A stretch of DNA of 64,000 nt. Source: Candidatus Microgenomates bacterium (GTDB taxonomy: Bacteria; Patescibacteriota; Microgenomatia; Daviesbacterales; UBA10151). Under the pieces are notes generated by a model. It saw only the letters and a list, made by a program, of their open reading frames with translations. It searched no databases and was not told the origin of the DNA. Position 1 is the first letter of the stretch, and each line of letters opens with the position of its first letter. Both the position numbers and the translations under genes were made by a program. Below are positions 21,717-45,962 of this stretch, in pieces. Where the stretch lies: assembly GCA_016182045.1 (NCBI GenBank), contig JACOYE010000007.1:98121-162120 (forward strand), given 5' to 3'.

Positions 21717-21718
21717 CA

Positions 21719-28418: not shown

Positions 28419-28833
28419 AGTGGTATTCGATACTATGGTTTTTGTCCGCAGTCTAATAAACCCCAGAAGCTTTTGGGGGAAACTTATCTTTAAATACTCA
28501 AACTCCTACCGTCTCTTTGTTTCGCGACCAGTGCTGCTGGAATTACTTGAAGTTTTAAACAGAGAGGAAATTAGCAAAAAGTTTAAGAGTATTAAAGGAT
28601 TAAATAGCAACAAAATTCTGCAAATTATCTCTCAAGCTGAAACAGTTGAAATATCGGATATCCCGCTGATTTCAAGAGATATAAAAGATGACAAATTTCT
28701 TGCTACTGCCAAGGCTGCAGATGCTGACTATCTGATTACCGAAGATGAAGATTTGTTGGTGCTAAAAGTTTATGCGGGAGTAAAAATCATCAATACAGCC
28801 ACTTTTTTGGATATTATTAAAACTAAACCCTAA
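28411..28833 (+). CDS. PIN-domain protein (putative toxin)
   Basis: VVFDTMVFVRS ... ITEDEDLL acidic residue pattern. Confidence 0.55.
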   Translation: MVKVVFDTMVFVRSLINPRSFWGKLIFKYSNSYRLFVSRPVLLELLEVLNREEISKKFKSIKGLNSNKILQIISQAETVEISDIPLISRDIKDDKFLATAKAADADYLITEDEDLLVLKVYAGVKIINTATFLDIIKTKP

Positions 28834-28895: not shown

Positions 28896-29903
28896 GTGGT
28901 AAGCTTAAAATTAATGTCCAAAATATCTTTCTATCTAATTTCAGCTGTAACCTTTTTTCTGGTGATGACACTCTTTCTAAAATTCCCGCAGGTTATTCAA
29001 GCCCAGTCAATACCAACCATAGGAGATCTTAAGGTAGGAGAATCTAAACAAATCACTGTATCCGGTTTAGACGCAAAGGAAAAATACTATTGGAGTGAAT
29101 CAAAAGTGACATCTGTTATCCTTGGCCAAACTAACACTCCTATTTTTTATGGTTGTTTTGACTCCAGTGACAAGGGGGAGATACAACGGACCATAGGACC
29201 GTTTTCAACACCAGGACTTTATAAATTAGTAATCGATAGGTCTGAAACTGGCTGTACACCCTCGGGCAATCCAGTGGTATCACAAGACTTTTCGGTGGGA
29301 GGACCAACAGGGCAGAGTTGTTGTACTGCAGCTTTGCCGCGTTATGATAGAAATAAAGATGTCTGTGCAGATATAACCCTACATAATCCTCTACTTCCAC
29401 AACAGACGATTGAAGTAGAAACAGAATGTTCCAACACAAACCCTAAAAGCTACTGTGAACCAGAATCTTTACAATGTTTTACCACTAAAACTCAGGTAAA
29501 GGCCGGGAAAATATGTTTCGATCCTCACGAGCCAGGTTTTGATAAAAATAAACATATTATTTGCGCTAAAAGTGGAGGACAAGAAATTACCGGATGCACT
29601 GATAATAAAGACAATCCGGGGATTGCCACTGCCATTGGCTGTATACATACCTCACCGGTTGGATTTGTTAAAGACGCTTTAAAGTTTATCATTGCCATCT
29701 CTGGGGGTTTGGCATTTTTGATGATGCTTTTGGGAGCATTTCAGATGCTGACATCAGCCGGAAATCCCGAGACTTTGCAGGCCGGACGGGAAAGATTTCA
29801 ATCTGCCATCATCGGGCTTTTGTTTGTGATCTTTGCAGTTTTGCTGCTTCGCATCATTGGAGTTGATATACTGGGACTTGGAAAACAGTTTGGAGGACCA
29901 TGA
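28896..29903 (+). CDS. secreted Cys-rich protein fused to a C-terminal VirB2/TrbC-like T4SS pilin module
   Basis: signal peptide; ~20 Cys in residues 80-240; C-terminal LMMLLGAFQMLTSAGNPETLQAGRERFQSAIIGLLFVIFAVLLL matches the two-helix motif of the five downstream pilin paralogs. Confidence 0.5.
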   Translation: MVSLKLMSKISFYLISAVTFFLVMTLFLKFPQVIQAQSIPTIGDLKVGESKQITVSGLDAKEKYYWSESKVTSVILGQTNTPIFYGCFDSSDKGEIQRTIGPFSTPGLYKLVIDRSETGCTPSGNPVVSQDFSVGGPTGQSCCTAALPRYDRNKDVCADITLHNPLLPQQTIEVETECSNTNPKSYCEPESLQCFTTKTQVKAGKICFDPHEPGFDKNKHIICAKSGGQEITGCTDNKDNPGIATAIGCIHTSPVGFVKDALKFIIAISGGLAFLMMLLGAFQMLTSAGNPETLQAGRERFQSAIIGLLFVIFAVLLLRIIGVDILGLGKQFGGP

Positions 29904-30298
29904 TGATAATGTCAAATTACAAATTTCAAATTACAAATGAAGGTCAAAATCCAAATACTAAAAAGAAATATGATCTTGAGGAAAGGACTGCCAAGTTTGG
30001 GGAAAAGATTCTGGAGTTTGCCAAAAAAATACCACAAAACCCTGTAACATTACCAATCATCAGTCAGCTGGTACGTTCAGGCACCAGTATAGGAGCTAAT
30101 TATTGCGAAGCAGACGGGGCGGAAAGCAAAAAAGACTTCAGACATAAAATAGGAATTTGTAAAAAAGAAGCTAAGGAAACTAAACATTGGCTTAGGATGG
30201 TAGCAAAAGCTGTACCAGACCTTGCACCGGAAGCAAGGGAGTATTGGCAAGAAGCTCAGGAATTGACTTTAATTTTTTCGGCAATTATCAGAAAATAA
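29900..30298 (+). CDS. four-helix-bundle protein (TIGR02436-like, 23S rRNA IVS-protein family)
   Basis: SIGANYCEADGAESKKDFRHKIGICKKEAKETKHWLRM signature. Confidence 0.7.
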   Translation: MMIMSNYKFQITNEGQNPNTKKKYDLEERTAKFGEKILEFAKKIPQNPVTLPIISQLVRSGTSIGANYCEADGAESKKDFRHKIGICKKEAKETKHWLRMVAKAVPDLAPEAREYWQEAQELTLIFSAIIRK

Positions 30299-34202: not shown

Positions 34203-37200
34203 CTAAATTATCTTATCGGTCAACCAATCTTCAATTGATTCAGATCCTGTTGTCTTATTCCCTCCTTCATAGATTTTAAACTTTTTAGAAAGGAAGCTAT
34301 TCCAATATTTTTCCCTTCTGTATACATCAGCTCCACCTCCTGGGCTCTCATCCTGCAACCAATCATAAAATCCTCTTCGTCCTTCCTCCCCATACAAAAA
34401 TGCATCTTGTCTATTCCTGGCAGTACCATTATTTTTTAGGATATCTTTGTCTGATTCAATGGCAGTATTAAAACTACCATCCGACAAAAATACCTCTACT
34501 TCCTCTAGATTTAAAGCTCCTGCTGAATTATCAGTGGCTGAATACATCACCCTCATATCATGGGTAACCTTTGTTAACCTGCCAAAACATTCTTTAAATT
34601 TATATAGAAACGGTATGGTCTTTGTTGCACTATCTAAAAGGTCTCCAGAGATAGCGTCTCCAGCATATCCATGCATAGTTTCATTATTATCAGTTGGTTT
34701 TTCATACAAACCAAAAACCCACTCTCCTGTTTGAGGATCAACATAGCCAACTGAATGATTAAACATTTCAACTGCTTTATCCTGCACTTCAAAAATTTTC
34801 GTCAGTCCAAATTGTCCCACTATGCCTTGGTGCGAAATCTTCTTGATTTCATCTGCCATTACCTTAACTGCTCCAGATAATCCATGTACTCCCCATCTGG
34901 GACCTGCGGCATCATGTTCAAAAGGAGCATCAGCAATTTCAGCACCAAGTCTTCTGGATAAACGAGAAGTTTGCTGAGCTGCAAATTCCACAAAACCTAA
35001 TGTAAACCTATCCATTCCTGCCCAATCCTCGTTCCTATAACCTACCCGCATCCTGCCTATATAACCATCTCTAGGAAGAAATGCTCTATATAATCCATGC
35101 TTCCCTCTTTGTCTATCTTGAAATGACTCTAAGACGGCAGCTGCTACAAGGGCAACTTCTCTTTGTTGTTGAACATCTTCAAACTTTTTAACCCGTCTTA
35201 AAGTTGGATCTACAATCAAAAGTTGGGTGGCTAATATATCTTCATCTTCCCAACGAGACAAACCGTCTCTGATTCGTTCTGCTACCTTAAAGATACGAGG
35301 AGCCAATATAGTCACTCTATTATTGCCCTGGTAATACCAATAGGTATGGTCAGTATAACGGTTACGAAAATCGCTACTTTGGGCAGCTATTTGGAAAGTT
35401 GCTACTGCTTCCTCAACTAAAGTATCCCCTACTAGCTTTGCTTTGGTATTTTTGTTGATATTGTCATAATTAACAAGCTGACGATCATTAGGATCAGCTT
35501 TATCATAAATAATAACTTTACCATCCTGATCAAACTCTAATCCTATTGGATTGCCGTTATTATCAAAAGAAAGTTTAACTTCTTTGCCTGCCTGGTTAAA
35601 ACCCAAGATTTCACCATTTTTGAATTTTGTGAATTGACCTGTATTAGGCTCTATCCTTCCCAGCGGTCTTTTAAAAGTCATTGGTTTTGGTTGACCATCT
35701 GGACCTAACTCATCATCCAAAAGTTGAGCTGTATATCCCTTTGTTCTTAATTCTTCTGTCAACCTTGCTCTTGCTTCTCTTACTTTTTGCCTTCTGACTT
35801 TTGCCGGTTCGTTTGCATATTTCATCTTGGTCCAGGTAACACCCCATTGGACAAAGTTTTCTGCCTGGTAAGTTGGGATATTGTCAACAAAGTCATGTTT
35901 ATCTTCAGGGCTTAGCCGTGCATAAAGATCTTGCCAATATTTAGGAAAGCTATCTAGTCTTTTGCCACCGCTTTCCCCACCTCTCATTTTGTATAACATC
36001 CAGCCTATCTCGAACGATCTTCTATTAGCTTGCGGGAGAGAATCTCTTATTTTTTCAATTTCCTCTACTTTAAGTGCATCCGTATTTATTACTTTTGTTT
36101 TGTCTGTATCTATCCATTTCAGTCTTAATCCATCACTCACACTCTGGTAATATTGAATATGAGGATTTCTGTCCACATATAAAAATCCTCTACCTCTTCT
36201 AGCTTTCTCTCCTAATACTCCCTGCATTTGAAAAGCAATATCAAAATTAGCTGCTGCTTCATCATAAGCTGCCTTGTATGCTTGTCGATCTCGCGGACTT
36301 AATCGATCAATTGCCTTTTCGCCTTTTTCTAATTTTATCTGACCCCTAATTATAGCTTGTCTGAGTTCCCGAAGCTGTACCTGAATTCTTCCTAAATCTA
36401 TTGACTTTCTGATGGTTTCCGGGAGGTCAGCAAAAGCTGGATATTTTCTTTGATACTGTCTTTGATCTTCGGGCTTACTTTGATCTTCGGCAAAACGGTC
36501 TTGATCTTCTTTATAGCTTAGATAATTTTTAATGTGGTAATCACCTTTATCAAAACCTTCGTATAATCTTTTAAACTCTTCATCGGATTTGGTCAGGCCG
36601 AGTCTTTTTAAATTTGCTCTGTAAGCATTAAGCCTGGCTTGATCATGTACACGCTTTGCCTGATTATCTCCACCTAGTAGATCAATCGCTGTTTCGCCTG
36701 GCTTCAATTTTATTCTACCAGTGCTGATATCGTTTTCTATACTTCGAAGATCTGACTTAATTCTCTCTAAATCGCCGGCCGCATCAATTTTCGCTTGTAA
36801 ATCATCAGAGTTAAAATACTCATCCCTAGGATCATAATCCTTAAGCACAATACCCATTCCTCTTTCAATTACCATCTCCTGAATTTGATCTTGTTTGAAA
36901 TGACCAGCAACAATATCTAACTCTCCTCTTTCTCCTACAGGATTATTATAAATATCCATTACATCTTCGAAGTCAAAAATCTCAGTAAAAACAGCTACTC
37001 CCCCTTTTCCTGCTCGATATAATGCTACCCATCTGGCTGGCCCTTCATCCAAAGACATTGCCACCATTGCCTCTTTTTTCTGCTTGGGGTTATAAACCTC
37101 ATTTGCATAGTTACCCACAAAAACATATAATAATGCTTCCAGTTCCAACCTATTTTCTTCCAAAAAATCAGCATCGATATTACCTTCTCTGACCTGTCTT

Positions 37201-38627
37201 CCTCCTTCTGCACCGAAACTCTCGATGAAATTTTTGACATGTTCAAAAATAGCAGCTGGTGATTTACCTACAGATCCAGACCTTATCATTTGGAAAAAAG
37301 TTTCTTTTGCTATCAGAAATTGTTCCGGGGTTCGAGCAGTAACATGATAATATTTAGGATAACTGGTTGTTTCCCAATAAGTTTCCCTTTGAGCTCTACT
37401 TACTTGTTCAGGAGTAGGAACAGACCACTCACCTTCTATGTGATCTGGTTGAGGTTGACCATTACGACTCCTTTCTAATCTACGGCTAGCCCAATCAATA
37501 TATGCCTCCCCAACGCCTGCTAATTGCTGGGGAAGATTAGGATCTTCTAAGCTTCTTTCACGAAATTCTACTAAAGCTATAACTCTAGCTCTGGCAATCC
37601 CTCGCTCAAATAGAACATCTGCTTCCTCAGGAGGAATACGAGGGTTAATAATCTGTTGATATACAGTATTCAAAACCGCATCAACTTCTTTTAAAAGCCC
37701 CTGATTTTTTGCCTGTCTAAAATAGACTTGCAAATCTTTTTGGGCATCTTGCAGCTCTTGTTGGGATGTTGTATTGGCATACTGATTTCTTCTAGTCTCT
37801 ATAGACCTGTTAGGATCATTAGAATCTGGTAATGATTCAGCAGGAAAACCTTCAGCTTCTTCAGTCCCTTCAAGCTGATATTGAGCACGAAACTGCTCTA
37901 CCATTTCATTCATCTCCTGTATTGCTTGTGGCAAAGGAGGAAATTCTGGGGGCTGTAGTGGCTGACCAGGTTCTCTTTGTGCTGGTCTTGGATAAGCTTT
38001 ATGAGGGCCAAAAGGATCTGGATCGTTTCTTTCCCCACATAATGCATCTACATATTCCTTTAATTCTTGAAGTCGTTGTGCATAGACAGGGCCATTTACT
38101 TCGTTGTATCTTTCTTCATAAGTCATGGTGGTCCTGAATCTGACAATTTCTTCAACAAGCCATCTGCCTCTTTCCGGGCTGGTTTCCCATTCTGGTCCTC
38201 TGGGTGGTGGCTCCCGATCTCCACCATTCCCTCCATCTGGGGGGGGCGGGCCACCACCTCTTCTAGGTTCTCCAGGTTCAAAAGGAGGAAGCTCACCAAA
38301 ACCCGGGGGACGTTCTACTACTGGGGGTATTTCTGCTTGTTCTGAAGAAGTATCGGCAAGCGGCTGTTCTGATGTTTGCTGGGGAGCTGATGGTGGAATA
38401 TTCTCAGGAATTATTGAGGGATCTAAGGCGGATTCTGGAGCACCTTCAAAAATATGCTCAAAGGGTGGGGGTATGGGGGTTATAGGAGGCGCTGATTCTG
38501 TTGCCACTCCGCTTGCGGGTGGTACCTGTTCTCCCATTCCTACAGCATTAGGAGGAGCTAAAGTTGTCGTTGAACCTGTTTCCGCTGATGAAGCATCTGC
38601 CATGTTTATTCTTTCTACTTGGGCCAT
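34203..38627 (-). CDS. giant (1474 aa) hypothetical protein, Pro/Glu/Ala-rich disordered N-terminus, internal ~45-aa duplicated module
   Basis: single uninterrupted ORF; no Walker motif, TM or signal peptide seen; promoter TTGACA-17-TACACT at rc of 38648-38676. Confidence 0.45.
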   Translation of the reverse strand: MAQVERINMADASSAETGSTTTLAPPNAVGMGEQVPPASGVATESAPPITPIPPPFEHIFEGAPESALDPSIIPENIPPSAPQQTSEQPLADTSSEQAEIPPVVERPPGFGELPPFEPGEPRRGGGPPPPDGGNGGDREPPPRGPEWETSPERGRWLVEEIVRFRTTMTYEERYNEVNGPVYAQRLQELKEYVDALCGERNDPDPFGPHKAYPRPAQREPGQPLQPPEFPPLPQAIQEMNEMVEQFRAQYQLEGTEEAEGFPAESLPDSNDPNRSIETRRNQYANTTSQQELQDAQKDLQVYFRQAKNQGLLKEVDAVLNTVYQQIINPRIPPEEADVLFERGIARARVIALVEFRERSLEDPNLPQQLAGVGEAYIDWASRRLERSRNGQPQPDHIEGEWSVPTPEQVSRAQRETYWETTSYPKYYHVTARTPEQFLIAKETFFQMIRSGSVGKSPAAIFEHVKNFIESFGAEGGRQVREGNIDADFLEENRLELEALLYVFVGNYANEVYNPKQKKEAMVAMSLDEGPARWVALYRAGKGGVAVFTEIFDFEDVMDIYNNPVGERGELDIVAGHFKQDQIQEMVIERGMGIVLKDYDPRDEYFNSDDLQAKIDAAGDLERIKSDLRSIENDISTGRIKLKPGETAIDLLGGDNQAKRVHDQARLNAYRANLKRLGLTKSDEEFKRLYEGFDKGDYHIKNYLSYKEDQDRFAEDQSKPEDQRQYQRKYPAFADLPETIRKSIDLGRIQVQLRELRQAIIRGQIKLEKGEKAIDRLSPRDRQAYKAAYDEAAANFDIAFQMQGVLGEKARRGRGFLYVDRNPHIQYYQSVSDGLRLKWIDTDKTKVINTDALKVEEIEKIRDSLPQANRRSFEIGWMLYKMRGGESGGKRLDSFPKYWQDLYARLSPEDKHDFVDNIPTYQAENFVQWGVTWTKMKYANEPAKVRRQKVREARARLTEELRTKGYTAQLLDDELGPDGQPKPMTFKRPLGRIEPNTGQFTKFKNGEILGFNQAGKEVKLSFDNNGNPIGLEFDQDGKVIIYDKADPNDRQLVNYDNINKNTKAKLVGDTLVEEAVATFQIAAQSSDFRNRYTDHTYWYYQGNNRVTILAPRIFKVAERIRDGLSRWEDEDILATQLLIVDPTLRRVKKFEDVQQQREVALVAAAVLESFQDRQRGKHGLYRAFLPRDGYIGRMRVGYRNEDWAGMDRFTLGFVEFAAQQTSRLSRRLGAEIADAPFEHDAAGPRWGVHGLSGAVKVMADEIKKISHQGIVGQFGLTKIFEVQDKAVEMFNHSVGYVDPQTGEWVFGLYEKPTDNNETMHGYAGDAISGDLLDSATKTIPFLYKFKECFGRLTKVTHDMRVMYSATDNSAGALNLEEVEVFLSDGSFNTAIESDKDILKNNGTARNRQDAFLYGEEGRRGFYDWLQDESPGGGADVYRREKYWNSFLSKKFKIYEGGNKTTGSESIEDWLTDKII

Positions 38628-38689
38628 GGTTTGTAGAAGACAGTCCCAAAGCCCTGCTAATTTTTAGTGTAGGACTTAGGTAAGCTAAC

Positions 38690-38780
38690 TGTCAAATCCT
38701 TTCTTGGGGAAAGTTTACACTGAAGCGTTGCGAAGTGCTTGATTTATTCCTTACAAAATCCTGATATAAATGAAGCTAAA
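38690..38780. repeat. R-family intergenic element, copy R1
   Basis: TGTCAAATCCT..GGGGAAAGTTTACACTGAAGCG..GCGAAGTGCTTGATTTATTCC..AAATCCTGA. Confidence 0.6.
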
Positions 38781-40091
38781 CTAATTATTGAGAGGATCTA
38801 ATAACCATTTAAACATTGGAATTACCTTAATTTTGCCATTTTCAAAATCTACACTATCCTCATCTTCAGTTAATATCACTGCAGAATTTATGTTAAGTTC
38901 TTGCATAGCTGCTATTAAAGCCTTAACTTCTCTTTTTTGTGTCTCTTCATCCGCCAGACTTTGACAAACCTGAATTAAAATTTTTTGTTTAGGAAGATAA
39001 AAATCAACTTCTAAATCATTCTGAGTTGTGTAATAATAAATTTCTTCAAACAGTCTTCTTAGGGTTAAGAATACTAGATTTTCCAAAAGTTTGCCTCTAT
39101 TTTCAGAAAAAGAAAATGCCACTGATTTTATTAAACCTGTGTCGATGGCATAAATCTTTTTATTGGCAATTTGCTGTTTTTTGATAGAAAAAGCAAATTT
39201 ATTGATAGTAAACATCAACCAGCTGGTTTGTAGATAATCAATATAGTTTTTAACAGTGTTAACACTACCTAATTTAAGAAGTTCTTTTAACTTATTAAAT
39301 GAAACCAGAGAAGATATATTGCTGATCAAATAAAAACTTAGTTCTTTTAAAGCTTTAGTTTCTTCTATCTTGTAGCGTACAGCCACATCTCTGTAAATCA
39401 CATCATCATATAAAGTTTTGTGTAAGTTAATCTCAGGATACTTTAAGGCATCAGGTATACCCCCAGTGACTATATAATCATTAAAATATCTTTTCAGCTT
39501 GCTCTTTTGTAAGGTGGTTAAATAAGCTAAATTGGGCGTTTTCTGTTGTTTAAATGCTAAAAACTCTGCAAATGAAAATGGGAAAAGTTCAATCGGTGTA
39601 TACCTACCGGTAAGTTTGGTTCCCAGTTCTTTACTAAGTAAAGCAGCATTTGAGCCGGTGATATAAAACTTGCAGCCTTCATCAATCATCCGACGGACAA
39701 ATCTCTCCCAACCTATAACATTTTGTACTTCATCTAATAAAAATATCTTTCTTTGTCCAAAGAATTCCAGTTGGGTCTCATATAAGAGATTAAAATCATC
39801 TGCAGTAAAATTTAAAAATCTTTCATCTTCAAAGTTGACAAAATAATAGTCATCCGACGAATAAAATTTGTGGGCAATTTGAGCAAGCAGTGTAGATTTA
39901 CCAACTCGTCGTAAACCAGAAATTACTACGGCATAAGAAGAATTTGCATACTTTTTAATTTGAATAAGATTTTCTCTGGTTACTCCTAATTCTTTCTTTT
40001 TGAATTGCTCTGACTGATCCAATAACAAAGTTTTCAGTAAATCCTTTTTCATCGTCAGTGAAATTATAACTAATAAAGTTTTCACTGTCAA
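38781..40091 (-). CDS. AAA_14/DUF4143 ATPase (COG1373 family), paralog 2
   Basis: Walker A GLRRVGKSTLL, Walker B FLLDEVQ; likely true start at internal MKKD (40052) given TTGACA-16-TATAAT promoter inside annotated start. Confidence 0.7.
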   Translation of the reverse strand: MTVKTLLVIISLTMKKDLLKTLLLDQSEQFKKKELGVTRENLIQIKKYANSSYAVVISGLRRVGKSTLLAQIAHKFYSSDDYYFVNFEDERFLNFTADDFNLLYETQLEFFGQRKIFLLDEVQNVIGWERFVRRMIDEGCKFYITGSNAALLSKELGTKLTGRYTPIELFPFSFAEFLAFKQQKTPNLAYLTTLQKSKLKRYFNDYIVTGGIPDALKYPEINLHKTLYDDVIYRDVAVRYKIEETKALKELSFYLISNISSLVSFNKLKELLKLGSVNTVKNYIDYLQTSWLMFTINKFAFSIKKQQIANKKIYAIDTGLIKSVAFSFSENRGKLLENLVFLTLRRLFEEIYYYTTQNDLEVDFYLPKQKILIQVCQSLADEETQKREVKALIAAMQELNINSAVILTEDEDSVDFENGKIKVIPMFKWLLDPLNN

Positions 40092-40137
40092 TGAAAACTT
40101 AGGACTGATTTTAGTTTAGAGCTTTGTTAAACTTACT

Positions 40138-40277
40138 GTCAATCCTTCGACTCAGTTTACCCTGAGCTTGTCGAAGGGCTCAGGATTATAATCTCCTTTC
40201 TGGGGTAAGTTTACACTTCGACTACGCTCAATGCTTGATTAAATTCTAATATAATCCTGACGGGATGGAGGTTAAAC
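40138..40277. repeat. R-family element, copy R2 (with extra imperfect hairpin insert)
   Basis: TGTCAATCC...GGGGTAAGTTTACACTTCGACTACGCTCAATGCTTGATTAAATTCTAATATAATCCTGACGGGATGGAGGTTAAAC. Confidence 0.6.
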
Positions 40278-40294
40278 TTTACTCTTAAAATATA

Positions 40295-40573
40295 CTACTC
40301 CTCTTTGCCATACAAATCATCATGAGTTCCTAAGGCTGAAAAATATGCTATAGTTTCTTCTCCGCTACTTACTTCCTCATAAAATGCTCTATAATCTGCT
40401 GTTATATCAATACTCCTAAAACCTAAATAATGCTCTCGTAAAGGATGATTATTAAGCTGTGGATCATTAGGATCTTTCAAGAATACTCTGATCCGAGTCT
40501 CAAAATTTTTGCGGATTCTAACATTGACCTTTTTAAGCTTTTTCAAGAAATCAGGGTCATATTGAATCTTCAT
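40295..40573 (-). CDS. RelE/ParE(YafQ-like) family toxin
   Basis: HPLREHYLGFRSIDITADYRAFYEE pattern; 4-nt overlap with antitoxin. Confidence 0.6.
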   Translation of the reverse strand: MKIQYDPDFLKKLKKVNVRIRKNFETRIRVFLKDPNDPQLNNHPLREHYLGFRSIDITADYRAFYEEVSSGEETIAYFSALGTHDDLYGKEE

Positions 40574-40884
40574 ATACCCTGTTTTTTAAGATAAGCAATT
40601 GCATCCTCAGCATTATCAAAAACAGGAGAACCTTTTCCTTCTTTTCTATTTTTCTGTGCTTGCTGCAATGTTTTAATGAGATACTCACTGGGCTCTCCGT
40701 TTCCATATACACTAAAACTAACAGTTTTTGTCTTGATGAATTGCTTTAAAAAGGCCTTGATAATAACGGATAAAGGCATGCCAAGAGCTTCAGCTGTTAT
40801 CTGTGCTTCTTTTTTAGTTCGTGGATCAATTTTGGTAGTAATTACTGCATAACTCATGGTATTCCATAGTATATACAATAGCAT
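40570..40884 (-). CDS. RelB/DinJ-family antitoxin
   Basis: KIDPRTKKEAQITAEALGMPLSVIIKAFLKQFI ribbon-helix-helix pattern; probable start at MSYAV (~40857) because TTGACA-16-TATATA promoter overlaps annotated start. Confidence 0.6.
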   Translation of the reverse strand: MLLYILWNTMSYAVITTKIDPRTKKEAQITAEALGMPLSVIIKAFLKQFIKTKTVSFSVYGNGEPSEYLIKTLQQAQKNRKEGKGSPVFDNAEDAIAYLKKQGI

Positions 40885-40891
40885 ATACTTT

Positions 40892-40950
40892 TGTCAAATT
40901 TTGTGCTTGATTTAATTCTAATGAAATCCTGACGGGATGGAGGTTAAAAA
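40892..40950. repeat. R-family element, copy R3 (short form)
   Basis: TTGTCAAATTTTGTGCTTGATTTAATTCTAATGAAATCCTGACGGGATGGAGGTTAAAAAC. Confidence 0.6.
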
Positions 40951-42210
40951 CTATTTAAGCTTTGACTGTTCTAAAAGCGCATGAAATGGAAGAACATAAA
41001 TCTTAGTCTTATCTATTACTGCCTCTTGTTTATCGCCAAGATGAATAAGGTATGCTTTTTTTGGCTTATATTTTCTCAAAAAACTTCTGAAAGAGCGAGG
41101 CATTTCTAATTTTGACATCCTTTTATGTTTTGCTTCTAGCGGCACTGCCTCCAAACCTGTAACAAGAATAAAGTCAACCTCAGCCCTATCTCGTGTCCGC
41201 CAAAAATGAATTTGAGTCGGACTCATATCAAATTGCTCCCTAAGCATATTGAAAATGAGATTTTCAAATAAGTGCCCACTTAAAGGTTGCGGTATTCGTG
41301 GCAAACCAAACAGTCCCAGCAGAAAGTTACGAAGTCCAATATCATAAAAATAATATACCGGAGATTTACTAATCTCTTTTCTGACATTCCGGTAATACGG
41401 GCTCACCTTCTTAATTATGAATGTTTTCTCTAAATACCATAGGTAGTGTTGGACTGTTTTATCAGCGATCCCAATAGTTGAAGAAAGCTCGGTAGTATTG
41501 ACCAAGCTGCCGATTTGAGAGGCAATAACCTTAAGCAGGTTAGTAAAAGCTTCTTCTTTCTCAATATTGAGTAGTTTTTTAATATCCTGCTCGATATAGC
41601 TTTTATAGATTTCCTCCATTGCACTTTGTTTTTTCCATACAGTATCAGAGAGAATAACTTGAGGATAACCACCAAAAACCATATATTCCTCAAGAAACCG
41701 CTGCGTCTTGTCTTTCTCCAGGGCAAAAAACTCCCCTAATCTATCTTCATACCTATACTCTGTCCTAAAGTTAATAAATTCCTTTAAACTAATTGGATCA
41801 ATGCTAAACATCCTCTTGCGCCCGGCCATAGATTCGGAGATTTTAGCTTTTAACTCTAAGCTACCCGAACCTGAGATGATAAACTTATACGGTAAGTTCA
41901 TATCAGCAATACCTTTTAAGAAAAGTTCTGCGTTTTCTTTACGTTGAATCTCGTCAATAAACACATAGGCTTTCTCTTTACCAACTTGAAGTTCGATGTA
42001 TGAAATTAACTGACCTTGGGAATCAAAAAAGGGCCTGTGATCATCTATATCAAGGTTTAAAAAAAGAGTTTTCTCTCCTTTTGCCTTTAGTTTACCTTCC
42101 AAATACTTCATCAGGTAAGTTTTCCCTACCTGTCTGGGCCCAATGAGGATTGTCATTTCTTTTTCTGTAAGATGTCCTTCTAAAGCCTGGGTTATCGTTC
42201 TTTTGATCAT
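40951..42210 (-). CDS. AAA_14/DUF4143 ATPase (COG1373 family), paralog 3
   Basis: Walker A GPRQVGKTYLM, Walker B VFIDEIQ. Confidence 0.7.
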   Translation of the reverse strand: MIKRTITQALEGHLTEKEMTILIGPRQVGKTYLMKYLEGKLKAKGEKTLFLNLDIDDHRPFFDSQGQLISYIELQVGKEKAYVFIDEIQRKENAELFLKGIADMNLPYKFIISGSGSLELKAKISESMAGRKRMFSIDPISLKEFINFRTEYRYEDRLGEFFALEKDKTQRFLEEYMVFGGYPQVILSDTVWKKQSAMEEIYKSYIEQDIKKLLNIEKEEAFTNLLKVIASQIGSLVNTTELSSTIGIADKTVQHYLWYLEKTFIIKKVSPYYRNVRKEISKSPVYYFYDIGLRNFLLGLFGLPRIPQPLSGHLFENLIFNMLREQFDMSPTQIHFWRTRDRAEVDFILVTGLEAVPLEAKHKRMSKLEMPRSFRSFLRKYKPKKAYLIHLGDKQEAVIDKTKIYVLPFHALLEQSKLK

Positions 42211-42309
42211 ATACTACTATTTTAGTACCGAATTTCTAGAAGTCAAGTAGTAAAATTATCGGGTAAGAGTAGTTGGTTTGTATCCGGCATAGAATTTCCC
42301 AAACTTCTT

Positions 42310-42385
42310 TGTCAAATCCTGATCAGTTTACACTAAGCGATGCGTAAGTGCTTGATTTCATTCTGATGGAATCCTAACGAAATTA
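42310..42385. repeat. R-family element, copy R4
   Basis: TGTCAAATCCTGATCAGTTTACACTAAGCGATGCGTAAGTGCTTGATTTCATTCTGATGGAATCCTAACG. Confidence 0.6.
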
Positions 42386-42398
42386 CGGCTATATTGTA

Positions 42399-42872
42399 TT
42401 AAGTGAGATTTGCTGCCAAAGTAAATCCGAGTTTAGAATACCAATCATCCATAGAGAAAATAACATCAGTATTTAATTTTTTGGCAGTTGCTACAACCAG
42501 TGCATCAAAGACTGTTTTTTTCTTGCTACCTTTTGGGTCAAATACTTTTAAAGCCTCCTTAAGTAAATCTACATCTGTATTTTCTATTGATAACGACCCA
42601 TCTGTTATTCTCTCCACAATCTTAGCAGCAATATCTGACCTTTTAAGTTTTCGTATCAGTGTCGTGATAGTTTCCGTAATTGTGGTTAGGGGAAAAACTG
42701 TTTGAGCATCATGCTGTAATAGTTTGGCAACGGTTTCAACGGCTTTCTGATGACTTTTGTCTTCTTCGTGCAAAATAGCAATTAAAGCATCAGTGTCTCC
42801 TACCACAATCAGTTGTTTTTTAATCCCAGGTGTACTCATCATGTTTTTCAGATAAATCAGCTGGTAAACCAC
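42399..42872 (-). CDS. PIN-domain toxin (VapC-like)
   Basis: LIVVGDTDALIAIL ... conserved D/E positions; probable start at internal MMSTPG. Confidence 0.6.
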   Translation of the reverse strand: MVYQLIYLKNMMSTPGIKKQLIVVGDTDALIAILHEEDKSHQKAVETVAKLLQHDAQTVFPLTTITETITTLIRKLKRSDIAAKIVERITDGSLSIENTDVDLLKEALKVFDPKGSKKKTVFDALVVATAKKLNTDVIFSMDDWYSKLGFTLAANLT

Positions 42873-43092
42873 TCCCCTTGGGAATAATACCAGCCAGATC
42901 CAGGAGTACTTTGGTAGATTGCTTATTCTTCAAACTCTTGAGTCTTTCCAAATCATCTAATGAAACAATTGCCACCTGCGGTTTTCTTTTGGAAACCACT
43001 ATAGCAGGCTGCCTGGTTTTCTTGACTTTATCAAAGACTCTCCGGTAGTTTCTAAGAATATCTCTGGCAGTTACAATTGTGGTATCCAACAT
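42820..43092 (-). CDS. Phd/YefM-family antitoxin
   Basis: TIVTARDILRNYRRVFDKV...PAIVVSKRKPQVAIVSLDDLERL; TTGACA-17-TATTAT promoter at rc of 43093-43140. Confidence 0.6.
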   Translation of the reverse strand: MLDTTIVTARDILRNYRRVFDKVKKTRQPAIVVSKRKPQVAIVSLDDLERLKSLKNKQSTKVLLDLAGIIPKGSGLPADLSEKHDEYTWD

Positions 43093-43114
43093 ATAAAAAC
43101 ATAATACACTATTT

Positions 43115-43468
43115 CTACATATTTGTCAAGTAATTTTTTGACATTTCTATTGACATTTGGAGAGGAGTTAAATTTAATCCTGGTATTACCTTTTTTTTGC
43201 ACAGGTGCAGGCTGGAGCTACTCCTGCCGCATTCATCACATCTATCCCATCCACCGCTGCCGCCCCCAGAATGTTCTGACCAACTCCCATTCCCACTCCC
43301 ATAGCCTCCATGAGAAGTTCTGATCTGATGAGAAGATCCAGTAGTCTGTAATCTAAAACGACCTCTACCTCTAGGGATGGTTAATGGCAACTTATCTAGT
43401 GGCTCAACTGGTAATGGACTGGTCTCGGCCACTGAGACAGCTTCTGGAACAATGGCTTCTTTAGACAT
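43115..43468 (-). CDS. hypothetical Gly/Ser-rich small protein with CDECG motif
   Basis: 117 aa; GGYGSGNGSWSEHSGGGSGGWDRCDECGRSSSS; GC-richer than surroundings; uncertain. Confidence 0.3.
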   Translation of the reverse strand: MSKEAIVPEAVSVAETSPLPVEPLDKLPLTIPRGRGRFRLQTTGSSHQIRTSHGGYGSGNGSWSEHSGGGSGGWDRCDECGRSSSSLHLCKKKVIPGLNLTPLQMSIEMSKNYLTNM

Positions 43469-43547
43469 ACCTTACATTCCGCAATCGCGGCTGATACAAA
43501 ACTTATTTTAAAGTATCAATTATCATTTTGGCAAGTAGACTATCTAA

Positions 43548-43922
43548 TTAAGCTTTTAAGGCTTTAATATGATATTTCAGTATTTTCTCATCAACAGTAA
43601 TTAGAGTTAATTTCTCTACTTTTGCTTGAGCTATTATGATTCTATCAAATGGGTCTTTATGATAATCCTCTAATACCTCAATTTCTAGAACATGGTCAAT
43701 ATTAATTGGAAGTATAGTAAACAGGCTTTTTTTAATCCCACCTGCAATATCTCTTGGAACTTTCAAACCTTTTCTCTTTTTTATAATAATCTCCCAGACA
43801 GTTGCAACAGAAACAAATACCATATTATTTGGGTCAGAAATTACCTTCTGAAAAGCTTTAGAGAATCTAGTGCTTTTCTCCATAGCCCAAATAAAAACTT
43901 GGGTATCAAGGAGATAATTCAT
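43548..43922 (-). CDS. vapC: PIN-domain toxin VapC
   Basis: LLDTQVFIW...VATVWEIIIK...HKDPFDRIIIAQA classic VapC pattern. Confidence 0.75.
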   Translation of the reverse strand: MNYLLDTQVFIWAMEKSTRFSKAFQKVISDPNNMVFVSVATVWEIIIKKRKGLKVPRDIAGGIKKSLFTILPINIDHVLEIEVLEDYHKDPFDRIIIAQAKVEKLTLITVDEKILKYHIKALKA

Positions 43923-44171
43923 TTAAATATCACCTTCATAAAATAGTTTATTTATTTCCTCATCCTCTTTATCGAAATCTTTAGGAACCCAAACTTTACC
44001 TTTCCATAATCCCAATTTGCGGGGTTTTAACTTTTCTTTATAAGGACTAAGTTTAGCCACAGGTTTGCCTGCTTTGGCAATAATAACCTCCTCCCCTTTG
44101 GAGGTTTTTTCAATAAGTTTAGACAGGTTTGTTTTAGCATCGTGAATGTTTACAACTTGCATGGTAATCAT
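43923..44171 (-). CDS. Phd/YefM-type antitoxin (VapB)
   Basis: 82 aa directly upstream, adjacent without overlap (1-nt apart) with VapC. Confidence 0.6.
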   Translation of the reverse strand: MITMQVVNIHDAKTNLSKLIEKTSKGEEVIIAKAGKPVAKLSPYKEKLKPRKLGLWKGKVWVPKDFDKEDEEINKLFYEGDI

Positions 44172-44192
44172 ATCTTAGCTAACTTAGCTAAC

Positions 44193-44217
44193 TTTGTCAA
44201 CCACGTTCATTTTACAT
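44193..44217. repeat. 25-bp palindromic hairpin element CCACGTTCA-TTTTACA-TGAACGTGG (copy 2)
   Basis: identical arms to 16677-16701. Confidence 0.5.
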
Positions 44218-44232
44218 GAACGTGGTCAATAC

Positions 44233-45621
44233 TTAAATTAACATCCCGCCGCATTTATAACAATCTTCGGTACAATAGTTTACTTCACCACAACTGAGGC
44301 AACTTTTACCCTTTTTGCCATTTTCTCCTCCAAAAATTCCACTAAAACGATTGATAATTCCCAGGATAAAACCTGCCGTCACGCTTAAAACATTCCCTAA
44401 AGAAAAACCGCCTCCAATTGAAAATCCTCCTGATAAACCGCATCCAACCGCTACTGCTCTGACAGCCTGGTGGCCTAACCAGTTAATTTCTTCCCATAAA
44501 CTTCTAAAAACAGGCATTAGCTTATGAGTTACAGCTGAAACTGAACTTAAAATTCTATCTTTTATTCCTGTTATCCTTTTCCACATATAATCTGCTCCGT
44601 TTAAAACTGCATTTAAGGTAATTGCCACCTTTTCCGGGCTAAAGATTGAGTCACAAATTGCACTCACCAAAAATTGCATCCTCGCTGTACCTTCCTGAGT
44701 AATTTTCTGAAACTCCTCTTCTTTTAAAGCATTTTTTATTGGTATTAAAATCTCGCTATTGCCCCCTATAATAGGGTTAGCGAGCAACCACTGATCAATT
44801 GGAATATCAACACCATCAAAATAATCCGGCCTTGAAGCAGTTATTATCTCTTCTGCCTGTTCATAACTTAAATCTGAAGCAAACCTAGTCATTTGAACTA
44901 TTCTTCTTTGAGTAAATGGGTCTTCTAAAAGCTCATAACGATCTCGGAAATTATCTTTAAATATAGTATCTTTTACTAAACCTGGTCCTGAAACAACTCC
45001 AGCTTTTAAGCTTATCTGAGCATTGGGATCTGCAAAAGCTTCCTGTATTTTTAAAATACCGATCCTTTCCTGCTCCATTCTTGAAACATCAGGTGATCCT
45101 AGTTGCTTGTAATATTCAATTCCGATTGTTAAAACATCCTCAAAAGCCTGGTTAGGTAAGTCTCTGCTTCTTAATTTACCATCATCGTCAATATCATAGA
45201 TAACAATACTGGTAGCTACATGATACCTTTCTCTTAGAGCTGTTTCTATTTGTTTTATTTCATATAATTTAAACTGCTCTCTTTCCTCTTCGGTTTGCAG
45301 CTGCTCAAATGCGGCTCTTTCCAAAACAGGATTATAATTTCTGATTACCCCTCTTTCTCTTATTCCCAATCTGCTATCAAAAAAACTTTGCAATCTTGCT
45401 ACCCTTATTAAATATTCTTCTATATCCAGGCGGCTTTCTTTTTGTGACTTAGGAGCTTCTGTAGGGGCTGTAATTCGCTCTGTTGGTTGCGCGATAACTA
45501 TTGTATTGTCAAATGAGAAATTTGGCTCATATCTTCCGCCTACATCTGGTTGTACTAAAATATCAATTTCTTTAAAAGTAGATATTGGTGAATGTTCAGC
45601 TGCTTCTGTTCTCATAGCCAT
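44233..45621 (-). CDS. hypothetical protein with C-terminal Gly-rich hydrophobic segment and Cys-rich tail (SCLSCGEVNYCTEDCYKCGG)
   Basis: 462 aa; no recognised catalytic motif. Confidence 0.35.
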   Translation of the reverse strand: MAMRTEAAEHSPISTFKEIDILVQPDVGGRYEPNFSFDNTIVIAQPTERITAPTEAPKSQKESRLDIEEYLIRVARLQSFFDSRLGIRERGVIRNYNPVLERAAFEQLQTEEEREQFKLYEIKQIETALRERYHVATSIVIYDIDDDGKLRSRDLPNQAFEDVLTIGIEYYKQLGSPDVSRMEQERIGILKIQEAFADPNAQISLKAGVVSGPGLVKDTIFKDNFRDRYELLEDPFTQRRIVQMTRFASDLSYEQAEEIITASRPDYFDGVDIPIDQWLLANPIIGGNSEILIPIKNALKEEEFQKITQEGTARMQFLVSAICDSIFSPEKVAITLNAVLNGADYMWKRITGIKDRILSSVSAVTHKLMPVFRSLWEEINWLGHQAVRAVAVGCGLSGGFSIGGGFSLGNVLSVTAGFILGIINRFSGIFGGENGKKGKSCLSCGEVNYCTEDCYKCGGMLI

Positions 45622-45626
45622 TAAAA

Positions 45627-45672
45627 AACCCTCTCTTCGAGGGTTAAGTTTACTCTTTGACTCGAAGAGATA
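45627..45672. repeat. R-family-related hairpin element, copy R5 (AACCCTC-TCTTC-GAGGGTT then GTTAAGTTTACTCT..CTCGAAGAG)
   Basis: shares AAGTTTAC core and CTTCGA/TCGAAG arms with R2. Confidence 0.45.
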
Positions 45673-45962
45673 TTAAAGGAACCCAGGCAGCCCGACTGTA
45701 ACGGTTACGGCATAGTGATAGAATTACACTATCTTCCCCTGGAAAAGATTAGTCTGATCCAATCTGTCCCCTTTAAATTGTAAATTCAGCTTAAATTAAG
45801 TCAGAATCTTTGTCAATCCACCAGATGTTGTATCAATACCTTGTAGTTACTCACAGAAATGGTGGGGATTGTGCTTAAATGATCCTTTTTGTACCCCTAG
45901 ACTCATTAATTTTCACGCAGTAGGATAACTCATAGTTAGCAGAAAGAAACGGTCCCTAATTT

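Follow-up and report, generated by a model that had tools for sequence, protein, structure and literature searches.

Tandem accretion at a gene end is familiar from the ICEs and CIMEs of streptococci, and includes att-flanked, cis-mobilisable elements that carry no integrase. In promoters governed by the OmpR/PhoB winged-helix family, tandem direct-repeat sites (the pho boxes of PhoB, the OmpR sites) replace the -35 element. The locus considered here lies in a 64-kb window (the whole stretch of DNA analysed) of contig JACOYE010000007.1 from Candidatus Microgenomates bacterium (Daviesbacterales). Like sedentary chromosomal integron arrays and CALINs, it is built of small, one-directional units on the same strand with self-promoted toxin-antitoxin modules, a conserved element follows each unit, content and order differ, and a cassette is occasionally inverted. 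As in defence-island hot spots, one pair of conserved genes encloses a variable set of defence-type genes in many genomes; unlike those islands, which mobile elements carry, the units consist of one gene or a gene pair and are delimited by the duplicated promoter region of a flanking gene. Alignments indicate that the repeated elements between the units (R1–R4) duplicate the 5′ region of Y, the conserved gene that lies downstream, and are not cassette-borne recombination hairpins. The minus strand carries every gene between 34203 and 45621, and each of R1–R4 begins 3–25 nt past the stop codon of the preceding unit. In the direction of transcription, the features are as follows.

45627–45756, minus strand: cobalamin (AdoCbl-II) riboswitch with expression platform, upstream of gene X
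44233–45621, minus strand: gene X, 462 aa with a Cys-rich C-terminus, upstream anchor of the array
43548–44232, minus strand: Phd-PIN(a), the first cassette, directly after the X stop codon and without module A (the repeat core described below); promoter at 44200–44172; ahead of it, a small palindrome with TTGAC duplicated on either side (44229–44196)
43115–43547, minus strand: Gly/Ser/Cys-rich 117-aa orphan ORF and the spacer preceding it, without module A
42399–43129, minus strand: Phd-PIN(b) cassette; promoter TTGACA-17-TATTAT at 43129–43101
42247–42397, minus strand: R4, a truncated copy; module A (42397–42348), spacer, -10 TAAACT (42330–42325), 'type 2' promoter TTGACAAAGAAGTTTGGGAAATTCTATGCC (42315–42285) and a leader remnant of ~35 nt
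40951–42246, minus strand: ATPase2 cassette, AAA_14/DUF4143 gene at 42210–40951; promoter TTGACT-16-TAAAAT at 42246–42219
40903–40952, minus strand: R3, module A only, the shortest truncation; TATGCT hexamer (40885–40880) 17 nt downstream of module A
40295–40897, minus strand: RelB/ParE-RelE cassette (Pfam ParE_toxin, RelB); promoter TTGACA-18-TATACT at 40897–40868, starting 6 nt past the module A of R3
40098–40280, minus strand: R2, a shortened copy of the region upstream of a Y gene; module A (40280–40231), spacer with an inverted B block, -10 TAAACT (40213–40208), extra palindromic insert (~40195–40143), promoter TTGACA-18-TAAACT (40142–40113) and a decayed remnant of the Y start (40112–40098)
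38781–40097, minus strand: ATPase1 cassette, AAA_14/DUF4143, probable gene start 40052; consensus promoter TTGACA-17-TATAAT at 40091–40063
38628–38784, minus strand: R1, a complete copy of the Y upstream region; module A (38784–38735), 17-nt spacer, -10-like TAAACT (38717–38712), AGAAAGGA, then a sigma70-type promoter TTGACA-18-TACACT (38695–38666) whose leader continues to the Y ATG
34203–38627, minus strand: gene Y, 1474 aa, conserved in position, downstream anchor of the array

The Pfam labels given to the cassettes in the initial annotation hold, with AAA_14 plus DUF4143 found twice, ParE/RelE plus RelB once and Phd plus PIN twice. Both ATPases match PDC-S01 (E 2e-111 for ATPase1, 9e-91 for ATPase2), a PADLOC candidate defence family in which the ATPase is joined to DUF4143, a domain listed in the PD-(D/E)XK superfamily (PMC3424549). 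The 117-aa ORF has no match in Pfam, NCBIfam or PADLOC and no homologue in 59 related loci other than a hit at E = 0.14 to an X-type protein's tail, and its region is possibly a relic. The anchors are likewise without annotation, the X product in Pfam and Y in Pfam and NCBIfam; an X orthologue at locus L025 shares 66% amino acid identity.

Repeat search recovers R1–R4, as proposed at the outset, as a four-copy, 45-nt family with 69–93% identity (38736–38780, 40232–40276, 40904–40948 and 42349–42393). Among the blocks first described as conserved, TGCTTGATT stands out (5 copies versus 1.0 expected), and AATCCTGACGGGATGGAGGTTAAA is restricted to R2 and R3. The most conserved part of the elements is the promoter half, which the first reading missed. 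A fifth element, R5 (45627–45672), does not belong to the family: it has no module A, shares with R2 a single 22-nt block (86%), and is instead the expression platform of the riboswitch. The AdoCbl-II aptamer (45756–45677) scores 44.3 bits against Rfam RF01689 (gathering score 36.5), and a terminator stem with T-run follows immediately at 45645–45627. Orthologues of X have a cobalamin riboswitch upstream in 12 of 17 loci.

The shared part of R1–R4, module A, is a core of ~47 nt made of 11-bp direct repeats (cgTCAGGATTt / trTmAGrATTw / aaTCAAGCAc). To our knowledge its repeat sequence, TCAGGATT, fits no known box. An nhmmer profile of the 47–50-nt core detects exactly four copies in the window, every one of them at an array junction and on the minus strand (E 2e-13 to 2e-10), and no further match in the window below E = 0.7. 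Toxin-antitoxin and AAA_14/DUF4143 genes elsewhere in the window (28128–28833 and 22365–23561) lack module A, so that the repeat is a property of this locus and not of such genes. The family comprises 25 loci in species-representative genomes, almost all of them Daviesbacteria or Microgenomates MAGs, and 33 in metagenomes (93 copies, 76 non-redundant). Module A varies hardly at all across genomes in which the proteins next to it share only 25–65% identity; since the search pattern fixed 19 of its bases, conservation at those positions is partly an ascertainment effect, though positions 19–22 (CGTC), outside the pattern, are 80–97% conserved.

A self-spreading miniature repeat with outward-facing promoters, comparable to MITE, BOX or Correia elements, might also be built of modules (A, B, and C or type 2 blocks) and have small palindromes with duplicated flanks in and around it, as seen here. 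Such an origin is very improbable given just four copies in 64 kb, all inside the array, an orientation fixed relative to the locus, and the confinement of copies to two loci in those species-representative genomes with matches in both locus types; no terminal inverted repeats were noticed. At the second conserved locus the element takes up the ~60 nt that separate a small operon from a divergently transcribed gene.

What module A may do is suggested by its spacing. TAnnnT lies exactly 17 nt past it in 62 of 68 non-redundant Daviesbacteria copies and at other offsets in about 2 of the 68; the interval is kept in 16 of 19 unrelated spacer classes, and the 17-nt distance to a -10-type hexamer is found in all four window copies. 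Compact sites run from the -10 to AGAAAGGA and then to an ATG within ~20 nt. Module A thus looks like the upstream half of a promoter directed towards Y. A non-canonical sequence, AAGCAN, occupies the -35 position (the -10 hexamer TAAACT follows after 17 nt), and because of this the promoter is probably activator-dependent, a judgement of activity and activator drawn from geometry and gene neighbourhood. The candidate activator is a STAND-NTPase/OmpR-type winged-helix protein encoded beside other element copies: the product of the divergent gene at the second locus matches Trans_reg_C (E 7e-13, 48.8 bits) and, weakly, nSTAND2. The window itself does not contain this gene. The arrangement recalls PhoB and OmpR promoters in that direct repeats of 11-bp period run up to a poor -35, the -10 distance is fixed, and a Trans_reg_C protein, predicted to bind, is encoded divergently beside element copies; it differs from OmpR/PhoB regulators in that the candidate has a STAND-like NTPase N-terminus in place of the receiver domain.

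Each unit also has its own promoter, as had been proposed. A promoter scan gave TTGACA-type matches on the coding strand (10–12 of 12) at the listed promoters of R1, R2 and the RelB/ParE-RelE pair, with further ones at those of ATPase1, ATPase2, Phd-PIN(b) and Phd-PIN(a); the total of promoter-like sites in the region (27) is not above that in shuffles (22.4 ± 5). The suggestion of a terminator-promoter module used for shuffling comes nearer than an integron, but its terminator half fails, as a terminator scan of R1–R4 found none.

The elements are tied to Y by their downstream parts. R1 has homologues in the elements that precede Y in L020, L010 and L008 (78–89% nucleotide identity), and R2 aligns with L010, where no cassette is present, as far as the Y start, and also with L041; the decayed remnant of Y in R2 is identified from these two alignments. 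R4 is homologous to elements in L011 and L017 up to window position 42278. A Y-like ORF (~1200–1600 aa, starting MAE... or MAQ...) follows the last, terminal copy in 22 loci. Internal copies carry the Y leader, often with the first 7–22 Y codons, and end where the next cassette begins; Y starts cut after 7–22 codons follow internal copies in L011 (four times), L019, L052 and L041. Because internal copies carry Y's leader and start codons, we consider it likely, if well short of certain, that the array is a cassette hot spot arising from repeated duplication of, and recombination in, the 5′ region of Y, here called U. U would be the 5′ regulatory region of Y, opening with module A and continuing into a leader, often with a second, consensus sigma70 promoter, and R1–R4 would be serial copies of it, the internal ones ending at different points.

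Comparison of relatives bears out the early description of an array whose content varies, since zero to at least six cassettes lie between the same two conserved genes and their orders differ. Empty X-A-Y sites occur in L006, L010, L012, L018, L022 and L049, and sites occupied by one to at least six cassettes in L011, L017, L019+L020, L024, L041, L051 and the window. The relatives' cassettes are toxin-antitoxin pairs or AAA_14/DUF4143 (PADLOC PDC-S01) ATPases, and the same ones recur in differing order. Orthologues of Phd-PIN(a) in L011, L019 and L033 occupy other array positions, flanked by module A; that of Phd-PIN(b) in L024 has a module A copy on both sides; and in L025 the orthologous RelB/ParE-RelE pair directly follows gene X. 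ATPase1 is 78–80% identical to its counterparts in L011, L041 and L032, and the window, L041 and L011 have an identical left junction of this cassette (at 40097 in the window; TTTTCATTGACAGTG). Cassette proteins are better conserved between genomes (Phd(a) 86–89%, ATPase1 78–80%) than the products of flanking genes (PrgI 55–63%, X 27–66%, Y 25–37%). Homology between relatives breaks off at U. L024 and L026, which differ by one cassette, are 98.1% identical over 1,482 nt to module A position 50 and 76% beyond, and the L026 copy resembles a chimera of both L024 copies. The window and L041 share ATPase1 (80% amino acid identity) and R1/R2 (74% nucleotide identity) until homology stops at 38666, and the adjacent Y proteins are not alignable. 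Further breakpoints, located in the type 2 promoter and where promoter C ends, do not fall within module A.

Were the elements purely regulatory, each unit needing the same promoter or operator in an old, vertically inherited and static array, the strong promoter geometry would be expected, and so would the finding that all same-species Logan contigs, from several samples, have the window's arrangement, with no variation seen within the species. We regard this as unlikely: genomes with the same flanks differ in how many cassettes they have, in which ones and in their order, breakpoints coincide with U, the cassettes already possess consensus promoters, and truncated Y coding starts, for which regulation offers no rationale, show that the copies arose by duplication and descent.

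The integron or superintegron interpretation advanced in the initial annotation does not survive. It would make R1–R4 bottom-strand attC sites of a chromosomal integron or CALIN with an IntI integrase outside the window, and it draws on the same-strand, toxin-antitoxin-rich array, the element after each cassette, the variable content between genomes, and GTTTAAC (an RYYYAAC match), which R2 and R3 have at their left edge. R2 alone folds better than shuffles (z about -2); R1, R3 and R4 on both strands fold no better (z +0.2 to +0.8; R1 plus strand -0.6). No RYYYAAC...GTTRRRY (R″/R′) pair occurs on either strand of R1–R4, the core-site motif in R2 occurring twice in direct, not inverted, orientation, and none of 50 window ORFs scanned, including all listed ORFs of at least 135 aa, matches an integrase or transposase family. 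Moreover, the copies hold promoters and coding-start remnants of the downstream gene, unlike attC sites; the repeat is an adjacent core gene's promoter, leader and first codons, and itself a promoter. An empty site already has one copy between two core genes, and the first cassette has no upstream site. An integron is thus already contradicted on its defining features and highly improbable.

An integrase-less accretion array built by site-specific recombination, with module A as the attachment-site core for a recombinase encoded elsewhere in the genome or on a visiting element, is a further reading, which we find doubtful. The cassettes would then be cis-mobilisable and att-flanked, and the additional U sequence on the right of module A would be the homology that each cassette's attP brings along, just as elements integrating at the end of a gene bring a copy of it. 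The likeness to ICEs and CIMEs is that serial insertions at a conserved gene's end leave partial gene-end direct repeats while the gene stays intact, and that the internal units encode no recombinase themselves. Near-invariance of module A beside divergent proteins, the one clean breakpoint exactly at its position 50 with the chimera-like L026 copy, and the 93% identity of the R2 and R3 cores flanking RelBE, as for a duplicated att site, all fit; so does the direct orientation of copies within arrays, even around the one inverted cassette of L007. The ICE and CIME systems differ in that here the duplicated part is a 5′ end with its promoter, not a tRNA or gene 3′ end, truncation points vary by cassette, units are only 0.6–1.5 kb, and no integrase-bearing element is seen in the window. 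Against an attachment site, none of the window ORFs scanned matches a recombinase, nor was a recombinase noticed in an unsystematic look at ORFs listed for related loci. Other breakpoints lie outside module A, which consists of direct repeats rather than inverted repeats around a 6–8-bp spacer and whose central 5 nt vary among R1–R4; the strict 17-nt spacing is enough to account for its conservation without recombination. The first cassettes also have no copy upstream.

If the array was built by duplication of U, a cassette together with one U copy would loop out as a circle and re-enter by Campbell-type recombination between U copies, most simply through RecA-type homologous recombination on 50–190 bp of common sequence, duplicating U and shuffling cassettes. 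Each cassette family would have been founded by at least one illegitimate joint. Since every cassette would have a truncated U at its 5′ boundary and be followed 3′ by the next U, Y always retains an intact U. Sequence of ~50 nt (R3), or copies just 70% identical, would be an inefficient substrate for the homologous route, and a binding site for a recombinase or another protein would also fit the far better conservation of module A than of adjacent proteins. Other observations count against duplication of U as well. First cassettes after X, in the window and related loci, never have a U copy upstream and must have arrived by another route; junctions inside arrays lack module A at 43093–43547 of the window and in L008 and L015; the same-species contigs show a single arrangement; and the inverted cassette of L007, lying between two direct copies, cannot be served by the promoter copy upstream.

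In sum, the interval between X, controlled by the cobalamin riboswitch, and Y would be a place where self-promoted toxin-antitoxin pairs and AAA_14/DUF4143 ATPase-nuclease genes pile up in Daviesbacteria. The array is integron-like in outcome, being one-way, same-strand, toxin-antitoxin-rich and reorderable, without attC hairpins or a linked integrase, and R1–R4 with their cassettes mark the spot where the uncultured Daviesbacteria acquire, shed and rearrange defence-type genes although the defining parts of an integron are missing.

The repeats named R1 to R4, at the junctions of the gene array, form a genuine family. They share a core of about 47 nt, module A, are 69–93% identical in a repeat search of the window, and are the only copies that a profile search with the core recovers in 64 kb, all on the minus strand, with the next-best match at E = 0.76. 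Every gene from 34203 to 45621 lies on the minus strand, and the gene labels of the initial annotation agree with the Pfam assignments. Read 5′ to 3′ on that strand, the array comprises:

45677-45756, minus: aptamer of a cobalamin riboswitch (AdoCbl-II)
44233-45621, minus: gene X (462 aa), the upstream anchor
minus: Phd-PIN(a), toxin-antitoxin pair
43115-43547, minus: orphan Gly-rich ORF of 117 aa
minus: Phd-PIN(b), toxin-antitoxin pair
minus: R4
minus: ATPase2, AAA_14/DUF4143
minus: R3
minus: RelB-ParE/RelE, toxin-antitoxin pair
minus: R2
minus: ATPase1, AAA_14/DUF4143
minus: R1
34203-38627, minus: gene Y (1474 aa), the downstream anchor

The surroundings are chromosomal, with dnaA and dnaN at 9–11 kb, and the array is flanked by a split VirB4-like ATPase, a PrgI-family protein and T4SS pilins. 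Both array ATPases match the PADLOC candidate defence family PDC-S01 (E 2e-111 and 9e-91), as does a third AAA_14/DUF4143 gene (22365-23561, minus; E 2e-125) that adjoins smpB (21719-22159) and tmRNA (21357-21717). A listing of the PD-(D/E)XK nuclease superfamily includes DUF4143 (PMC3424549), and a literature search for the domain found only a survey of that superfamily and two unrelated papers. Within the T4SS pilin cluster lies a PIN gene (28411-28833, plus) with a 96-aa ORF just upstream (together 28128-28833). Module A is absent from these other toxin-antitoxin and AAA_14/DUF4143 genes of the window (28128-28833, 22365-23561), which ties the repeat to the locus and not to the genes it accompanies. 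The pilin cluster also holds a 23S rRNA-IVP-family gene (29900-30298, plus), of a family that forms an array cassette in a related locus (L060), and two Fic/DOC genes stand in tandem at 2599-4733 (minus). For the Gly/Ser/Cys-rich 117-aa ORF, neither the libraries nor 59 related loci supplied a homologue. It opens with MSKEAIVPEAV, similar to Y starts of the MSKEIIMAETAV type, and its tail is weakly like X-type C-termini; it could be what remains of an earlier boundary of the array, the sole match to X or Y having E = 0.14.

A degenerate pattern for the core matched 25 loci in species-representative genomes, one of them an evident chance match inside a Simkaniaceae ORF. The others belong to Candidatus Daviesbacteria or Microgenomates MAGs, or to MAGs labelled 'uncultured Gammaproteobacteria' with the same gene neighbourhood. 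A further 33 loci were matched in metagenome contigs, and a profile search of all collected loci gave 93 copies, 76 of them non-redundant. These are confined to two kinds of place, and in species-representative genomes with matches in both, copies are restricted to these two loci. The first context, that of the window, has on one strand a VirB4-like gene, a 250-aa gene and a PrgI-like gene, and on the other the riboswitch, X, zero or more cassettes, an element and Y, with a convergent gene of about 620 aa past Y. The second is a divergent pair in which a gene of 364–417 aa faces an element copy, an ORF of 111–118 aa, a second element copy and a Gly-rich gene of 354–459 aa. A dispersed repeat of the MITE or BOX kind was set aside given that the window holds just four copies, all within the array, and the aligned copies showed no evident terminal inverted repeats. 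An RNA element was likewise rejected, as Rfam searches of R1–R4 at the gathering threshold and up to E = 10 were empty save for Ocean-V (E = 9), folding gave no signal, and an apparent GATT...AATC hairpin lacked consistent covariation among the copies read. A small ORF within module A is discounted by a reading frame that differs between R1 and R2.

Comparison of these loci bears out the expectation that cassette content varies between related genomes. 'Empty' sites with a single element between X and Y occur in six loci (L006, L010, L012, L018, L022, L049), and occupied sites with from one to six or more cassettes are found in the window and in L011, L017, L019+L020, L024, L041 and L051, with shared cassettes in differing orders. 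Phd-PIN(a), for example, comes first in the window, is internal in L011 and L019, and is last in L033. The cassettes are nearly all co-oriented and include toxin-antitoxin pairs (Phd-PIN, RelBE, HTH-PIN, HigBA-like, AbiE), a Fic-domain gene, a 23S rRNA-IVP-family gene and AAA_14/DUF4143 ATPases. Between genomes the cassette proteins (Phd(a) 86–89% identical, ATPase1 78–80%) are more alike than the products of the flanking conserved genes (PrgI 55–63%, X 27–66%, Y 25–37%). The X–Y interval is a cassette hot spot.

The origin of the repeats is indicated by what follows module A. Between it and the next cassette lies the remainder of the Y upstream region: a leader, often with a consensus sigma70 promoter that belongs to one of two recurrent classes (promoter C, of TTGACA type, and the type 2 promoter), and, in many copies, the start of Y itself. 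Copies internal to arrays are partial Y 5′ ends, in which the leader is followed by MAE-type starts ending after 7–22 codons (L011, four times; L019; L052; L041), and 22 terminal copies lead into full-length Y, the arrangement expected of accretion at a gene end. In the empty site of L010, X is followed by module A, a segment termed block B, promoter C and then TACACTAAAATGAGTAAAGAAATAATTATGGCAGAA, where Y starts. The sequence upstream of ATPase1 in L041 can be aligned with it base by base and ends in ATTATAGTAGAAG directly before TTTTCATTGACAGTG. R2 of the window also aligns with L010, with a 16-nt deletion, and ends TAAACTAAAATCAGT..CCTAAG at the same junction with TTTTCATTGACAGTG; in L011 this ATPase1 junction follows another type of Y start, ATATGGCAGAAG then TTTTCATTGACAGTG. 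Within the window R1 is a complete copy of the Y 5′ region, R2 is cut after a decayed Y start, R4 about 35 nt past the type 2 promoter, and R3 6 nt past module A. Judged from these alignments, the repeats are duplicates, variously truncated, of the 5′ regulatory region of the flanking core gene Y, hereafter U.

Several smaller features of U were also recorded. Between identical flanks, the core of block B (16 nt) is found in either orientation, as CTTCGACTACGCTCAG in most copies and inverted, as CTGAGCGTAGTCGAAG, in L011 and in the promoter spacer of R2 (40214-40230), which suggests either a quasi-palindromic operator or a template-switch inversion. Past module A, at least five genomes (L025, reverse-complemented, ~6968-7070; L026; L024; L013; L017) have in common a leader of about 95 nt that forms an imperfect palindrome (GGTTTATCG...CGATAAAC) and has no Rfam match; other genomes have different long hairpins in the same position. 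Palindromes of 22–30 nt (ACGTTyATG..TrAACGT type) lie between exact 5–7-nt flank duplications, TTGAC...TTGAC or TCAGGAT...TCAGGAT, at 44229-44196 of the window (minus), within module A in L015 and L011, and between two TTGAC motifs in L008 and L011. Their appearance suggests either very small insertions that duplicated their target or operator palindromes.

The likeness to a chromosomal integron put forward in the initial annotation does not survive comparison with the defining parts of such a system. The attC sites of integrons are imperfect palindromes of 57–141 nt that fold as single strands. R1, R3 and R4 fold no better than shuffled sequences on either strand (z of +0.76, +0.32 and +0.38 on the minus strand; −0.62, +0.18 and +0.83 on the plus strand), and R2 alone reaches a z of about −2, a signal due to its extra palindromic insert. 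A regular-expression search of both strands of R1–R4 found no RYYYAAC and GTTRRRY pair 45–150 nt apart; in R2 the core-site motif occurs twice, in direct orientation. Pfam detected no integrase, recombinase or transposase in 50 ORFs of the window, a set that takes in all listed ORFs from 135 aa upwards. An adjacent IntI defines an integron and is not required for a CALIN, and the variable cassette content typical of both is present here. A literature search turned up no paper that connects such cassette arrays in the Candidate Phyla Radiation (CPR) with integrons or attC sites. A dif/Xer-like site, prompted by the motif GTAAACT, was set aside as no inverted 11-6-11 arrangement was seen on reading the sequence.

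What the arrays do show are homology breakpoints at the repeats, the units being bracketed by truncated and fuller copies of U. L024 and L026 are 98.1% identical over 1,482 nt spanning X, an HTH-PIN cassette and module A; this identity ends exactly at module A position 50 and falls to 76% beyond it. L024 has one extra cassette, located between two element copies, and the single copy of L026 resembles a chimera of those two. The window and L041 have in common ATPase1 (80% at the amino acid level) and both of its flanking elements (74% nt), with homology ending at 38666, the end of promoter C, and adjacent Y proteins that are not alignable (E > 0.5). For a HigBA-like cassette common to L017 and L034 (92% identity), the breakpoints fall within the type 2 promoter and close to the 3′ end of the second cassette gene. 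The first cassette past X never has an upstream U copy and only its own promoter after the X stop codon, some internal junctions are without module A, and one inverted cassette lies between direct element copies (L007).

Homology-driven exchange at the copies of U would account for this pattern. Recombination between the two copies bracketing a cassette would excise a circle carrying the cassette and one U, which could recombine with any U in the same genome, or in another after DNA uptake, and re-insert, duplicating U and keeping the left junction of the cassette. Such a cycle fits the constant ATPase1 junction in three genomes and the mosaic of block B, leader and two promoter types. We give it about an even chance of being correct, and favour it because the breakpoints are spread (at module A position 50, within the type 2 promoter and where promoter C ends), the truncation points vary and no recombinase was seen among the window ORFs scanned. 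We consider a recombinase acting in trans on module A improbable. Closer relatives were sought by a protein-guided scan of metagenome contigs with gene X, which was empty, and by the pattern scan, which gave no relative above ~80% nt identity; exact-protein look-ups returned only short Logan contigs identical to the window. Of these, L063 and L064 (window 40183/40179-38735) break at module A position 50 of R1, and L001 and L002 end at window position 40156, at the palindrome in R2. These breaks, from several samples, are consistent with repeated or variable sequence in the community.

Module A itself is predicted to be half of a promoter. In 62 of 68 non-redundant copies a TAnnnT hexamer, mostly TAAACT, lies exactly 17 nt past its last base, against a background of ~2/68 at any other offset. 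The rule is kept in 16 of 19 spacer classes unrelated in sequence, so it is not a by-product of common descent of the flanks, and all four window copies obey it, with −10 hexamers at 38717-38712, 40213-40208, 40885-40880 and 42330-42325. At compact sites AGAAAGGA comes after the hexamer, with a start codon no more than ~20 nt away. At the −35 position stands AAGCAN, a hexamer quite unlike TTGACA, and the 32 nt ending there consist of 11-bp direct repeats, CGTCAGGATTT, TRTMAGRATTW and AATCAAGCAC. Part of the consensus was fixed by the search pattern; the CGTC of module A, which lay outside it, is 80–97% conserved. Of two other candidates considered on the sequence alone, a SigH-type promoter and CsrA binding sites, the first is a poor match in spacing. 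Direct repeats with a 10–11 bp period that replace the −35 element are a signature of OmpR/PhoB-type winged-helix activators, and the tandem repeats of module A have this period and end at the −35 position. The most conserved part of the repeat is thus probably a specialised, activator-dependent promoter. Each unit also has its own predicted near-consensus sigma70 promoter on the coding strand, and the module A copy upstream of each may either contribute a regulatory input common to the units or be a mere passenger. The alternative offered in the initial annotation, a junction module with promoters for cassette shuffling, was largely right, with the amendments that the module duplicates the 5′ region of the flanking core gene, that its most conserved part is of this regulated kind, and that no terminator is evident.

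A candidate regulator is suggested by gene neighbourhood together with site architecture. In the second context the product of the divergent gene ends in a Trans_reg_C domain (E 7e-13, 48.8 bits) and weakly matches the NTPase nSTAND2; the gene lies divergently beside element copies in 14 of the loci, some duplicating the same contigs. In L037, where the product has 382 aa, the element copy fills nearly all of the ~60-nt gap beside this gene, and on the opposite strand of copies in the second context TTGACT-17-TATAAT-type promoters lie 10–13 nt before its start codon. The pair (for example L037 1779-4724; L009, reverse-complemented, 2388-5268) thus joins a STAND-like NTPase with an OmpR-type winged helix to a small ORF with a weak HicA match and a Gly-rich protein ending ...VFQKAA, with module A copies in both gaps, and likely represents the candidate regulator and a second operon of the same regulon. 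No such Trans_reg_C/STAND-like protein is encoded in the window. The window does encode an OmpR-type response regulator (12998-13663), paired with a histidine kinase beside a sigma-70 gene (11334-13663, minus).

The fifth claimed copy, R5 (45627-45672), is not a member of the family, having one 22-nt block in common with R2 and no module A. It is the terminator stem and T-run directly 3′ of the riboswitch aptamer (Rfam RF01689, 44.3 bits against a gathering score of 36.5), with the terminator (45645-45627) abutting the start codon of X. Among 17 related Daviesbacteria loci, 12 have a cobalamin riboswitch ahead of their X orthologue (L007, L010, L012, L018, L019, L022, L025, L026, L049, L051, L059, L060). 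This conservation, with the identity of the terminator and T-run, assigns R5 to the expression platform of X, which the riboswitch is predicted to control. The product of X has no detectable family and a Cys-rich C-terminus, and its gene adjoins the VirB4/PrgI secretion-like cluster. These bacteria are presumed unable to make B12, and X, possibly with Y, may have an unrecognised B12-related function.

A further reading, which we rate as slightly less probable still than a recombinase in trans, is that Daviesbacteria possess a dedicated cassette-capture system without a linked integrase, in which the near-invariant module A would be both a regulated promoter and the recognition site of a trans-acting protein, be it an unlinked recombinase, a STAND/winged-helix protein or the nuclease domain of a cassette ATPase. 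If so, defence and toxin-antitoxin cassettes would be inserted directionally before Y, under a signal common to the neighbouring type-IV-secretion-like machinery, and the CPR would have evolved, independently, a system functionally analogous to the integron.

CPR bacteria have tiny genomes in which few mobile elements can be recognised, and to our knowledge the routes by which they acquire and exchange defence genes are poorly known. The locus provides a conserved, lineage-wide hot spot for the stacking and reordering of toxin-antitoxin pairs and of ATPase-nuclease (PDC-S01) genes, placed in a cobalamin-riboswitch-headed gene pair beside a VirB4/PrgI secretion cluster. The repeated junction is the promoter region of a core gene, and the result is like that of an integron although its parts are absent. 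The locus also yields a new promoter/operator motif for which there is a candidate regulator. Organization of this sort is known, both as cassette hot spots and as gene-end accretion, and is met here in a poorly studied lineage; if recombination at these sites proves to be site-specific, the locus would represent a new cassette-capture system.
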